Source of the DNA: Macrostomum lignano
Taxonomy: Eukaryota
Reading direction: 5' to 3'
DNA length: 64,000 nt
NCBI GenBank assembly: GCA_002269645.1
Contig: NIVC01003158.1
Span: forward strand, 62,001-126,000
Shown here: piece by piece, positions 48,401 to 54,400 of the stretch
How positions within the stretch are numbered: position 1 is the stretch's first letter
Layout: the number at the start of each line of letters is the position of its first letter
Translations under genes and position numbers: made by a program
Notes under the pieces: generated by a model
Databases searched by the model: none
Seen by the model: only the letters and a program-made list of their open reading frames with translations
Told to the model about the DNA's origin: nothing

Positions 48401-51400
48401 AAAGATTGAATAATGATGAAGTTAGTTAATAGTTAATAATTAGGCCCTTAGGCAAATAAGCAGGCAATTAGGCAGCTTCACTATTGAGTAAAATACAGCA
48501 AAAGATACGGTATCACAATTGGCTCAGCTCTCTAATCAGACAATGGAAAATAGGCAAACCCCGGATAAGCAAAGGCAATTAGAGCACAAATTAGTAGCAG
48601 GAACTTACCGGCAGCTGCACAGAGAGAGAGAGAGGCGGAGTGACCGAGGGCGGCTGTAGGCTGCAGTCAGGCAGACGGTGAAGCGGCGATGCGCTGGAGC
48701 GACGAGGCGCTGATGTAGATCAGGCGATGCTGATGATGCTGGGCGGTATCAGACCGCTGGCCGATAGGCGAGCTCACTTGGGGAGCTAAGGATAACTTGG
48801 CGGTAACAGACCGCGGACCGGCAGGGATTCGTCTTATAGACGAATGGGTCAGAACTCAATCTGACAGCAAGTCCAAAGAAGGACGAGGAGAGGAACAGAG
48901 ATAAACTCAGTTGAGTATTCTCATGCCGAAATCGCTTCCTTTTATAGACCTCACAGCCGCCTCCTCAAGGTCGTTACCATGGCTCCCTCTCTCTGATTGG
49001 CTGCCGGCAGAATGACGTCAGAATGAGTCATGATGAGAAGCATGAGACCGGCATAGCAACATGAGAAATCGGGAAATTGCGCAATCCGGAGGTGGGGTGG
49101 GGGATAATTGGCGCAGCGGGTGGTCGCGAAAGTGTTGCGCAAGCAAACATTGAGAACAATAGGGCTGGGGTCGAGAACAAAGGAATTGGAAATCGGGATA
49201 ATTGGGGAAACTGAGAACAATGGAAAAGTAAACATTGGAGAAAAGGTGATAATTAGGTGCGAAAACGAGAACAAAAGAAAGAGAAAATCGGAGAAAATGT
49301 GATAATTGGTGGGGGTCGAGAGAACAAAAGAAGCAAAAACGAGAACAATAGAAGCGGAGGTGGGGTGGGTGTCACATGAGAAATTTGGGAAGGAGAACAA
49401 TAGCGTGAGAAAAGGTTGCGCAAGAGAGGGGGATGAGTCATCGATGAGTCACCGAGGGGGAGAAGGGGTCACACGACTTGCGTCACCGTTTGGGAGTTTG
49501 AGAGGGGATGGGGAGACGGTGAGCACACAAAGTACTGTAAGTAGACACAGGGAAAGAGGGGACAGCGCAGGAAAAGAGTGCAGAGGGAGACAAAAAAAGG
49601 GAGGAGGTAGAGAAAGTACAGGAAGAATAGGCGGGAACAGAAGAGATAGGGTAGAGGGGGAGGTACAGAAAGGGGTAGGGGCTCCGGAAAGGCAGGTGTG
49701 GCGGCAGGAGAGACGGGACCAAGGCAGCAGGAGGGGTGCAGCAGAGCGGGAGTCTCCAGGCCCGGTCGGAGACCTGGCCGAGTCTCGACAGCTCTGTGCA
49801 GAGGGTGCACGGGATAGGAGGCACTTTCGAAAAAGTTCCCATGCCCTATCCCGCGACCAGAGCGTGGTTACATCACACCCCACTGCCTTTTGTGACGGAA
49901 CTGGTTCCGTCATCATCACTGCCCAACATGGAACCACACAGACGGGAGCGGGATCTCAACCGAACGTGAAATCACAGAATTAACAAACCGCGAGCGGGAA
50001 TGGAAAAAGGCGATAAAATAGAGGGGATAGCAATAAATTCACAAAACGAGATACATAGGTTGGAGTGCAATACAGAATTTCAAAAATTTCAACTGTTGCT
50101 GTGGCTAAAGTGGGAGGGGGGAAACACAGACAGCGCAATAGTAGGGAGAAAAATAGCGAATTGTCAACAATAAATTATCATAATTGGATAGAAGCGCAGC
50201 TGGGAAAGAGAGGAAACGGGGAAGGGTGAGGGAAGTGGGGAAAAAGAAGGGGGGAAGGGTTGCTAGCACACAGCCAAGGGCAGAGCCTCGGGGAGAATGA
50301 CGATTACACAGGGGAAAAATACTAATGCAGCGCAGTAAATTAATAAGCTAATTTCGCCGGGAGTTCAACCGCACGGAGGCCTAGCGTCCTTGAAGGCTCG
50401 GACCCCGCTTCAGCCAGTCAGAGGGCTTCGGGGCGATCGGTTGTAGGCTGGGAGGCGCCGCGCCGTGCGCTGGCCACTGTATAAAAGGCGCCACTGATAA
50501 CGGGAGCCGGCTGCCTGCAACCTACACGGAGTCGCAGTTTCCAACCAAGGCACTCAGCGCGATTTCCAAACTATACAACTACTCGGTAAGTCCCATCACC
50601 AACCTGATTTCCTTTCGCCTATACGTTAAACGAAATCTACCCACTCGCCATGCCTTTCGTTTTAAACTGAGCCAATTGCAGTAATAATATATGGCCTTTC
50701 TTACGGTAAAAGTAGTGAGCAGCCAACACAGAGCCATTTTTAGGAATTTTTAGAATAATGACACAACAATGACTCGTATATTGGTTATTAAAGTTTAAAA
50801 ATGAATATTATGGAAGAACCGAATATTAATAGGATAATTTCACACACACACACACGACAAACACACAACGCAAGGGGGCGGAAAGGCGGGTCGGACCGGC
50901 CGGCGGACGTCGCTCAGCAGGCAGTCGGCATCCTTACTCGAAATGGGCCTCTTGATTTAGCTGGTACGGGCCATATGCCGCCACCTGAGCCATGGCACTT
51001 GCCCATGCTTCCACATAACGTTGGGCTGCCGCGGCCGTGAGCACCACTCGGTGCCATCGGCTAGGCAAGATGTCGTTGCGCAGCACGCCCCTCAACTGCG
51101 GCAGAGTCGGGATGCCCAGGGCTTGGCATTGGACGACGAAGGCCGCATTCCGTACTTGTTGCAGCCGTGTCAGAGTTGGTGCAGACAGGGGCGGCTGCGC
51201 GATTGCAAAATGCTGCAAAGTGCCACGGGGCACCTCGGCCAGGCCCGCGTAGCCGGGCTCAACGTCGCCCAGGGCCGCCAACACCCACCCACAGCGGCGA
51301 TTGAACCGTTGCGAGAGAGTGGCGGCCCAGGCCACTGTGGCAAACGGCGCATAGAGGAGGGGCGCAGAGGCCGGCGCGGAGGCCGCAAGAATGCCGTCGT

Positions 51401-54400
51401 GGATGACGAGAGCCTCTTCCCATTCGGCGCCCTCGCTCAGGAAGCCCCAGAGCAGCCCTGGCAGGTCCGCAGGAAGCATGCCCCAGCGGCTGGCCAAGCT
51501 GGCCAGGCCAATCAATAGCCGGGCTCTCTGGGTTGGTGTCAGTTGTCTAGTCATCTGAGAGGAGGCTGCGCAGCTGATGATCACCTTCTTGTAGACCGGC
51601 GATCGCAGGTGCTGAAGATTGCTGTGATGGGGGCACAGGACGGCGGCCGGGCTGTCAGGTGTGATGGTTCCTCATCCACAACCTTGCGGAGGAACTTGGC
51701 GGCCTGCCGGACTAGGTCGCCGAGGCGTATTTGTAGGCGCTCTGGGCCGCTGCCTCGATGTACATTAACAGCGTATTGTCAACCAATCCCAGCAGGGCCG
51801 CTTTTGACAGGATGAGCAGACAGGGCCGGTCCAGGTTGTCGCGAAGTTGGCGCTCTAGAGTCGCATGCCTGTCCTCGGCCTGGAGTGGGCCATGATAGGA
51901 CTCAGGCCCGACCCAGTGCACCAGATCCATAGCTGTCGCCGAAGGTTCGCCAGCCACCTGACCCCAATTGACTTCTTCTCTTTGCAGGGCGATGTCCACA
52001 CTTCGGCGGCTGTTGGGCAGAACATCACGCAGGCGGCGGGCCGCCTCGCCGAATTCGGCCGCCAGGTCCGAAATGTCCGCGGTGTCGCCCCCAGCATTGG
52101 CCGGGTCGATTGTCTCGTCACCTTCTTCGACCCTGGCGGAGGCCGCCGCTGGCGGCTCGGGGCCGTCCTCCGCCTCTTGGATGGCGTCACGGGGCCGCTT
52201 TCGGCTAACTGGGCTGGCAGGACGCTCAGACGGCAAGCTGGAGCATAGCTGAATTCGATTGATGGTAGGCTTCGCGTCCATGTCAAGCTGGATAGTTCAT
52301 AGAATGCTTCAGCGATTGAAGGACAGAATGATTTCTCTGATTGATGATTTCCAGCTCTGGCAGGCGTGGGTCTTCTTATAGTGCCGGGGCTGGCTTCCAT
52401 TGGTTGAGCACATTGGGAGGCACACCTGCTGCGGCCGGGGTCGTCCGTTGGCTTGGGACCGCTCGCTCTAGTCTCCGTGCGCTCTGATTGGCTGGTTCCG
52501 CCGCTTCCTGTTTCCTCACCTGTGAGCAGGGGGCAGACCCGAGACCACCTCCGGTCGCGCCCGCGCAGATCCGTACTCCAGCCGACAGAGATCGCACTCC
52601 CACCTCACATGCACACATTCAGATCAGGCACACAAATTAATTTGGTTAATATGAATAGAAGAGGGATTTGGGAGATTAGACTCCGGAGGATAAATGATGA
52701 TGCGGCCCAACTCCCTTCGATTTCTTCCTTCAACGCACGCGCACGCAGTTCTCATCCATGCCTCCGAGACCCTCATAAACTTAAACCCGAAAGAATTCGA
52801 AAGAGGAATTAATCATTAATTTGACTGCCACCAGTTTGATGTACTATTAATAAAGAGAAAGGGGAACCTACCACCATCTTGGCGCATTACCAAAGAAAAG
52901 AAAAGGAGGATCAGCCACCATTTTGAGAGAGGTTGCTAGGGAAAACTGCCACCAATTGTACATTAACAGGGAAGAAAAGGGAACCCGTCACCAATTAGAG
53001 TGGATTGCCCGGGGAAACTGCCACCATTTGCCCTTCTACCAGAGGAGAGGAAGACGAAAAAACTGCCATCCCTTAGAGGTGTATCATTAAAAGAAGGCGG
53101 GAAGAAGGCTACACTACTTGATCACCTAGAGCTCAAGGAAGGAGAGGGAATGAAGAAAGGAAGAAACCCCCAGGAAGGCCACTACCACACGCCATAAAGT
53201 TAAAATCCCCATCTATCTACATCCTAATACCCGGCTAGTTCCCTACTTCTATTCATCCTTAAATCTCATTTTCAGGATTCCGGCCGCCTAGTAGCCGAGC
53301 CCATCCTTGAAGAGGAGTCCGACTACGAAGCGCCCGAAGACAGCCATTCAGAGCCGGACGCCCCCTCTGATTCTGGGCCGCTGCGCCATCTGCGTGACAT
53401 AGGCGCCGCGGCTCCCGGGCCATGCGACCGCGGCGCCAGCGAACCAGCGTCGGGCCGGTTGGCATCCGTACCACGCCGTTGTCAGCCGAGCGCACGCTCC
53501 CGCCGGTCGCCGCGGTGACGCCCGTGGCTGCCGCTCCACAGCCCTTGCCAACCCCTGTGGTGGAGACCGACGGCCCTGGCATTTGGTCGTGCTGTCGACG
53601 CCCTAATAGCCGTCTCACAATGCACTGGCTACTGCTCTTGGAGCTATTTCTGCGGCTTCCCAACTGCTGATGCTGGGTGGTTCTTAATGCTTACTTACTA
53701 ATTCTGAACTATCTGTCCCATAACTTGACTTTAATTACTTACCTGACTTTACATTGACTAAACCACTGGCCTACTCTAAACTAATTGCTGCCCCATTTGC
53801 CCTGATAAACTTAATTACATTGAATGCCCCCCCCTATTGCCTCATCGAAACCAATTAAAAGTTTCCCAAAAATCGGACTTTCACAAAGTGTGAACAAACA
53901 CACGAAATCAGACCTAAAGGTGCTAATTTCCTACGGTCCCAGACTTTCCATTGTTCCCAGAAAATCTTCAACAGCGGGGCAGGACCTCCTGTGGAGCAGA
54001 CCCATAGAAATTTTACTAGTTTCCAAGTTAATATTTACTGATAGGGAATTAACGCATACTGTACGGGCCTAATTTTCGAGCTAAAATCTTAGATATTTAA
54101 ACAACACCAACGAGCACGAGGTCACAACATAAATTCGAGTAATAGAGGGCATACGTAAATACGCGAAAAGCGGTCTCCAACGGGGCAACACGAGCAAAAT
54201 TTCGACACGCGAATCGGGGGGGGGATTAAGCAATCACTGGCTAGCTACCGATCTGTTACTCAGCGGGGGTCGAATGGGAGACTCACACCTAGCAAGTAAA
54301 CCTTTTCTGTTCGATAGTCTATGATAGCATGCGTACTGGCTAGAAAAGCACTACCCAGGAGGGAAACTGCTGCTGAATTGCCAACGACCAGAAAGAGGAT

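Follow-up and report, generated by a model that had tools for sequence, protein, structure and literature searches.

The analyzed window is a stretch of 64,000 nucleotides (nt) of the genome of Macrostomum lignano (assembly GCA_002269645.1, contig NIVC01003158.1, forward-strand positions 62,001 to 126,000), and all coordinates below refer to it. Its minus strand carries a long terminal repeat (LTR) retrotransposon, named here element A, which encodes Gag and an aspartic protease and, ahead of its 3' LTR, an orphan gene for a protein of 449 amino acids (aa) with a predicted promoter of its own. Gene and promoter together form a cassette.

50934..52281, minus strand: 449-aa orphan gene, composed of two open reading frames (ORF3 and ORF4) and broken in the window copy near 51726 and 51601
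52372..52630, minus strand: predicted internal promoter, with GCCAATCAG at 52492, CCAAT at 52403 and TATAAG at 52380, 99 nt before the ATG
50790..52745, minus strand: optional cassette (promoter and gene), the stretch absent in the commonest deletion class

The initial annotation, made from the nucleotide sequence alone, had described unknown accessory gene(s) here: a 189-aa frame with the motif RKRPR, a second frame of 216 aa, and protein-like text in shifted frames between them. The first frame (52281-51712, minus strand) and the intervening text are present as described; the second does end at 50934, although its size is 245 aa from stop to stop, or 206 aa from the first Met. A DNA search gave 42 genome matches, of which 30 loci were fetched and compared. 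A single 449-aa frame was found in 15 of these, as anticipated by the suggestion of one protein of about 450 aa broken by frameshifts or sequencing indels; in the window copy the breaks fall near codons 186 and 228 (~51726 and ~51601). Compared with one natural copy, the other 29 contain 98 indel events at 75 places and 110 substitutions. The indels are mainly single bases in short runs, and 50 of the 98 are confined to two copies. Single-base indels in short runs are the pattern left by long-read errors, and since the indels are scattered, mostly of this kind and concentrated in noisy copies, the two breaks of the window copy look like read errors. Over 50608-52233, two gaps are the sole differences between public contigs and the window; their places fall outside the matches listed.

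The coding character of the joined frame is supported by comparison with diverged variants. One of these, C100, is a full element whose 450-aa frame is open and shows 77% identity to the 449-aa gene; another (C201) is a broken solo copy of the cassette. Against two diverged variants, the ratio of nonsynonymous to synonymous substitution rates (dN/dS) of the gene is 0.087 (bootstrap 0.055-0.122) and 0.096 (0.058-0.140), which rules out neutral decay of the copies. The other five frames across the gene contain 9-15 stops each, and the codon-position bias is strong (73/41/222). ORF3 and ORF4 are thus almost certainly a single real gene and not two. Some break is seen in 15 of the 30 loci, as would be expected of two separate ORFs or of decayed non-coding sequence, but we give that explanation practically no weight: it is refuted by the intact frame in the other half of the loci, by the scatter of the breaks and their association with noisy copies, and by the codon bias and dN/dS.

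The CCAAT and TATA-like motifs reported ahead of ORF3 were confirmed (CCAAT at 52491 and 52403, TATAAG at 52380). A CCAAT-TATA pair arises in 45 of 20,000 shuffles of the 500 nt upstream of the gene, and the same GCCAATCAG box also precedes the TATA box of the LTR. Of the 258 nt up to the TATA box, 226 and 189 bases (88% and 73%) are kept in two diverged variants, compared with 93/204 and 90/196 fourfold sites of the gene (46%) in the same variants; the last 50 nt of the 5' untranslated region are about half identical in diverged variants. The promoter region is far better kept than the fourfold sites, which argues that the upstream region is constrained and backs the proposal of an internal promoter. 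The predicted promoter very probably drives the 449-aa gene. Among the public sequencing runs listed for the gene none is an RNA run, and all were used as contigs, which cannot show transcript start, strand or level. Three copies (C616, locus L028; C3989 and C3922; L028-L030) have a common 2.1-kb insertion with a 4-bp duplication between CCAAT and TATA (~52387). It encodes an integrase zinc-binding domain, and the 449-aa gene is still open in L028; the insertion has the look of a Ginger-type DNA transposon that has been carried along.

The cassette is optional. Copy counts here and below are lower bounds, derived from top-candidate searches. About 34 contigs carry the 449-aa gene within A elements, and many contigs with an identical gag gave no match to it. 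Ten stretches were fetched and proved to be A copies without the gene (5), copies interrupted after gag (2) and members of a sister family (3); 18 further stretches, picked for the lack of a gene match, included 15 without the gene and 3 cut by contig ends. The 20 gene-less copies fall into three breakpoint classes (16, 2 and 2 copies), i.e., at least three deletions. In the two gene-less copies that were checked the LTRs are near-identical, so such copies kept moving, and the 449-aa gene is dispensable in cis. In the comparison of C254 with C100, the gene has a silent divergence of 1.46 but gag one of just 0.165, and the LTRs are ~97% alike; the cassette has therefore been swapped between lineages and moves as a module. 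Partial losses were also observed: an internal deletion in the gene (C513) and a deletion that takes promoter and start (C4565). The solo copy (C201, ~631400-633900) lies outside any A element, directly after a zinc-finger-like ORF ending in a C2H2-like motif; this ORF has three relatives elsewhere, near gag-like frames.

A scan of 1.84 billion representative proteins with the 449-aa protein gave three matches, two of which are related fragments; the candidate P0004, a bacterial TPR protein matching a short repeat, was dropped. A cluster look-up added a 437-aa relative in public contigs, which aligns end to end at 31% identity and brings the public relatives to three (P0003, P0005 and P0006). 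The invariant residues of the family are hydrophobic residues, Gly, Pro, Trp and His, and the 449-aa protein contains no DNA-binding motif or invariant basic patch. As noted in the initial annotation, neither a signal peptide nor an evident membrane segment is present (the highest 19-residue hydropathy, 1.71, lies internally), so by hydropathy the protein lacks the signal peptide and C-terminal membrane anchor of an env protein. Further searches were negative: (i) Pfam detected no family in the window ORFs or in any of the four aligned family members; (ii) word-index protein searches, which cover near lengths only, gave nothing at E 0.001 (single protein) or E 0.1 (alignment); (iii) PDB sequences gave a single match at E 0.6; (iv) the ESM Atlas had no usable match for either of two queries; (v) viral and metagenome contig scans produced 62 and 55 pattern matches, none of them confirmed; and (vi) a profile search across the fetched loci found no remote relative of the gene. 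Structure models are of low confidence (mean predicted local distance difference test scores, pLDDT, 47 and 50). They suggest that a low-confidence N-terminal part of 150 residues precedes a core of helices at ~154-290, with mixed structure toward the C-terminus. In fold comparisons with these models the best Z values were 5.9 and 6.1, and Foldseek found no match at E 0.001, including none to a fusion-protein fold, which at this model quality indicates neither a new nor a known fold. A likeness to the extra ORF of another gypsy family (C1104) was rejected (probability 1.6%, unrelated). That family is complete (L065:1258-2931), and its 558-aa third ORF has weak similarity to DnaJ (E 0.0025) and TatD DNase (E 5.5e-05), both below Pfam cut-offs.

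The element carrying the cassette has the following further features.

47662..60747, minus strand: whole A element (13.1 kb), inserted into an intron of an Arf6-like host gene with a 4-bp target duplication
58530..60747, minus strand: 5' LTR with TG...CA ends, GCCAATCAG at 59869, TATAAAAGG at 59814 and a donor-like site near 59476
58509..58526, minus strand: primer binding site, starting with TGG, identical in the B elements described below and largely so in the sister family
56000..58508, minus strand: long leader and first ~60 Gag codons, 99% common with B elements
54762..56205, minus strand: Gag, disrupted in the window copy and 481 aa long in others, dN/dS 0.097
54260..54783, minus strand: aspartic protease frame, 174 aa, with a D-G-G motif, in the -1 frame from a G GGA AAC slippery site and disrupted in the window copy
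49876..49891, minus strand: polypurine tract
47662..49875, minus strand: 3' LTR

The two LTRs (2.2 kb) differ from each other by one mismatch and four gap columns, and the primer binding site presumably corresponds to tRNA-Leu. The leader (56200-58500), common to A and B, is unusually long (2.3 kb) and contains a third GCCAATCAG box at 57356. Gag has no zinc knuckle. The protease frame is open in 7 of the 10 copies examined, ~58 genomic places closely match it, and by analogy with known retroviral sites it would be reached by ribosomal frameshifting at G GGA AAC. Element A encodes no reverse transcriptase (RT) or integrase, a fact missed in the initial annotation. Its ends are those of a Ty3/gypsy LTR retrotransposon (TG...CA LTRs, short target duplication, primer site and polypurine tract). 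In two A copies (C497 and C498), a PIF1-like helicase frame and non-LTR elements interrupt the sequence past gag, and another copy contains a 6.2-kb insertion (C1570:45660-51860) with no frame of ≥250 aa and no pol match.

The gag search also matched long frames at 27% identity, which led to a second group of elements, B. In three fetched B copies the first 4783 and last 3050 bases of A, at ~99% identity, enclose one frame of ~1500 aa. It consists, in this order, of a short capsid-like domain, a linker, a gypsy-like RT, RNase H and integrase, the three enzymes being recognized by Pfam. The search yielded ten B copies, and the whole capsid-to-RT stretch was matched in nine. The RT-RNase H-integrase order of Ty3/gypsy elements is therefore present in the B partner only, and neither element combines Gag, protease, RT and integrase as an autonomous one does, A being without RT and integrase and B without protease. 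A sister family, A', has gag and protease 41% and 40% identical to those of A, unrelated LTRs and no 449-aa gene. A protease-less partner for this family was predicted beforehand and then found via the sister leader: the B' elements (C1757 and C3095) share the sister ends at 96-99% and have no protease. Among the best 150 of 4183 candidates scored, the RT of B' is the closest relative of that of B (73%; next 52%). The B and B' polyproteins are 54% identical and have long open frames; their LTRs are unrelated. No protease was detected in B by Pfam, motif, tblastn or a protease profile; this profile, built from 73 of 120 relatives, recognized 2/2 A copies, 2/2 A' copies and the control at E ≤2.2e-13, and 0/5 B and B' copies (best E 0.18). 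Identity of the capsid domains is 43% for A-A', 30% for B-B' and 22-27% across, i.e., A pairs with A' and B with B', which indicates that the split predates the two families. Among the top candidates scored, no element with this LTR has both protease and RT. A decayed element (L100, C251) with a diverged sister-family leader and pol fragments like those of B' is possibly a third, older partner.

On the opposite strand, part of the cassette is overlapped by a second transcription unit.

53276..53670, plus strand: antisense last exon, 135 aa, acidic and then Pro/Ala-rich, hydrophobic at residues 108-126 near the C-terminus; frame disrupted in the window copy
52233..53275, plus strand: antisense intron, GT...AG in 28/30 loci, with GC in the window and one other
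51992..52232, plus strand: candidate first coding exon, 80 codons from Met, overlapping the N-terminal part of the 449-aa gene
50410..50590, plus strand: candidate antisense promoter, with TATAAAAGG (TATA box) at 50480 and a donor-like site near 50586, within the 3' region common to B

Contigs from two of eight runs (from two studies; their RNA status is a guess) join 52233 to ~53288. Read on the plus strand this join is a GT...AG intron, and none of the 42 genomic matches begins there. The last exon is open in many copies and is the only stop-free frame of the six; its dN/dS is 0.20 (0.10-0.37) against C100 and ~0.31-0.33 against C616, and the splice donor is kept in all three variants. The openness of the 80-codon frame is partly forced by the sense protein. 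As judged from these sequence features, A carries a spliced antisense gene for a predicted membrane-anchored protein that overlaps the 449-aa gene. The minus strand is the coding strand of the latter, as had been assumed; that the plus strand carries a gene as well, across a portion of the same sequence, had been missed in the initial annotation. A plus-strand donor near 50586 with an acceptor near 51988 was considered, and the contig breaks gave it no support.

Outside element A, 183-nt inverted repeats, 98% complementary, flank ~1.6 kb holding nested inverted repeats (41429-43382), likely a non-autonomous DNA transposon. Long tandem arrays occur at 3770-6943 and 44292-47202, including units of 30-31 nt in the introns of the Arf6-like gene.

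On balance, we favor the view that the 449-aa gene encodes a likely trans-acting regulator, expressed from its own promoter and borne as an optional cassette on the Gag-protease half of a likely two-part Ty3/gypsy retrotransposon. In retroviruses and Ty elements, RT and integrase are set free by the protease, which they require for this, so B likely needs the protease of A, and A needs the enzymes of B; the mutual dependence of the two is probably obligate. In such a system A would give the bulk capsid and the protease, the capsid-like domain of B would bring the enzymes into the A particle, where the A protease would cut them free, and the common leader would package both RNAs. The proportion of A to B copies would take over the part that frameshifting usually plays in setting Gag against Gag-Pol. 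A short mRNA of its own, terminating in the 3' region, would encode the 449-aa protein, which, with its low-complexity N-terminus and helical core, could raise or protect expression from the shared LTR promoter in trans, as a transactivator or anti-silencing factor, which would let cassette-less copies ride along. The regulator role is a tentative assignment, suggested by a promoter of its own, a soluble product that is dispensable in cis yet selected, and a layout like that of Grande gene23.

Several points weigh against this reading. The searches gave the regulator role no backing from a family or fold. The initial annotation suggested a nuclear factor; its RKRPR motif becomes RKRPW in one variant, and the relative with 31% identity lacks it. 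Because 20 copies have lost the gene and B, A' and B' do not have it, it cannot be central, and it would have to be explained how selection acts on a factor that is shared in trans. As for the split, other individuals or genome regions missing from the assembly might contain a complete element, B might borrow the protease of another family or work uncleaved, constraint on the A protease is estimated from just three silent and three replacement changes, and the copy counts may include assembly duplicates.

An accessory role in particle or RNA handling (in packaging or export, or in transfer between cells jointly with the antisense membrane protein) ranks close behind that of a regulator, although we regard it as unlikely. 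It would suit the lack of a DNA-binding motif or invariant basic patch in the 449-aa protein and the overlap with the spliced antisense gene, with its conserved donor and constrained last exon (dN/dS 0.20-0.33). A separate promoter, however, fits a factor produced independently of the genomic RNA, the gene is missing from B and from 20 A copies that spread all the same, and the antisense protein has neither the N-terminal glycine nor the basic tail after the membrane segment described for sORF2/FAST proteins (PMC11952523). We consider it rather improbable that A is an ordinary semi-autonomous parasite, of the TR-GAG or Sabrina type, of a complete helper, with B a defective derivative or self-sufficient and the 449-aa gene mere cargo. 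Gag-protease-only elements are known in plants (PMC9744471, PMC13570524), and genome searches yield lower bounds. Yet, apart from B and B', no RT exceeded 52% identity among the 150 scored, two families with unrelated LTRs, 54% identical polyproteins and long open frames both show the layout without protease, and cargo would not hold a dN/dS of 0.09 up to a silent divergence of 1.4. Less probable still is a cassette captured from the host or a foreign source and kept for host benefit, or one that is a selfish module moving between elements. The broken solo copy at C201, outside any A element and beside a zinc-finger-like ORF, would fit this, as would a cassette far older than the gag of its carrier. 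The capture of a host gene, also raised in the initial annotation, found no support: no intact host paralogue exists among the top candidates, in which all genome matches are element copies or the broken solo copy.

If the preferred reading of a two-part element with an accessory regulator holds, RT-based LTR pipelines would list B as normal and discard A as non-autonomous, and split systems may be widely missed. With a natural protease/RT split, direct tests could be made of the ratio of Gag to Pol, of co-packaging and of cheating by individual copies, in parallel to multipartite viruses. The 449-aa protein is under selection, apparently separately promoted and without a known family, and copies with and without it in one genome allow comparison.

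In foamy viruses, a second promoter before the 3' LTR drives the accessory genes tas and bet. The layout here is alike, with a predicted internal promoter whose motifs are conserved, but the 449-aa protein has no Pfam or viral-fold match (the latter with a weak model), the partner RT is gypsy-like and there is no env, so the foamy-virus analogy drawn in the initial annotation is architectural only. Closer in kind is gene23 of maize Grande, a 3' internal accessory gene with its own promoter and no clear homologues, proposed to be a regulator, whose product GENE23 is nuclear (PMC7264820); the additional ORFs of Retand are likewise separately promoted (PMC11963269). The Grande and Retand ORFs are antisense, often with TRP28 (transposase 28) (PMC7264820, PMC11963269), whereas the 449-aa gene is in sense orientation, has no Pfam family in 4/4 members and lies in an element without pol. 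The ORF3 types of bdelloid LTR elements are modular, non-env extra ORFs in invertebrate gypsy elements (PMC5408684), but the 449-aa protein has no GDSL, DEDDy or env match. The antisense product resembles sORF2 of MDG1, a small membrane protein in a fly gypsy element (PMC11952523). In sORF2/FAST proteins, however, the membrane segment is central and followed by a basic cytoplasmic patch, usually with an N-terminal glycine motif (PMC11952523); here it occupies residues 108-126 of 135, leaving a 9-residue tail, and the candidate start, MSTL, has no myristoylation glycine, the N-terminus being uncertain.

Gag-protease helpers with autonomous partners have been published for wheat (PMC9744471, PMC11302176, PMC13570524). 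RLG_Sabrina_SA and RLG_WHAM, called a cooperative complex with RLG_Wilma, resemble A in being high-copy Gag-protease elements without RT or integrase, and the partners, like A and B, have a common primer site and LTR ends, as well as variants with unique extra coding segments (PMC9744471). Wilma, unlike B, is described as autonomous, with a complete protein set and minimal homology between the partners (PMC9744471); B is an RT partner without protease, whose LTR and leader are 99% common with A. In einkorn, RLG_Quinta and RLG_Cereba were proposed to be mutualistic, with gag variants swapped by recombination (PMC11302176). Quinta, like A, supplies Gag and has conserved LTR parts, but Cereba has its own protease, the dependence is one-way, and the available portion of the paper reports no separately promoted gene in Quinta (PMC11302176). 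Element A has the properties of TR-GAG or semi-autonomous Gag-Pro elements, being present in many young copies with intact Gag and protease but neither RT nor integrase, except for a complete autonomous partner, since the only elements with the same LTR and an RT that were found, in a lower-bound search, lack protease. In the accessible text of a flatworm LTR study (PMC12801592), the terms ORF, non-autonomous, antisense and protease do not occur, and its supplements could list the family. The literature, as far as it was covered, contained no protease-less RT partner paired with a Gag-protease element. Pairs of "symbiotic" LTR elements, split into Gag-protease and polymerase, have reportedly been described, which would lower the novelty. 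Gag-protease helpers, separately promoted accessory genes, extra ORFs and small membrane proteins are all already known; what is new, at least relative to the literature found, is the reciprocal protease/RT split. The most far-reaching reading, which we hold to be slightly more likely than not, is an animal lineage of segmented LTR retrotransposons. In it, separately mobile but mutually dependent Gag-protease and capsid-RT-integrase elements with shared ends would have split before the two families arose, and the Gag-protease segment would have become a complex, three-promoter carrier of swappable accessory genes, one of them founding a novel protein family and another, on the opposite strand, overlapping it and encoding a membrane protein.

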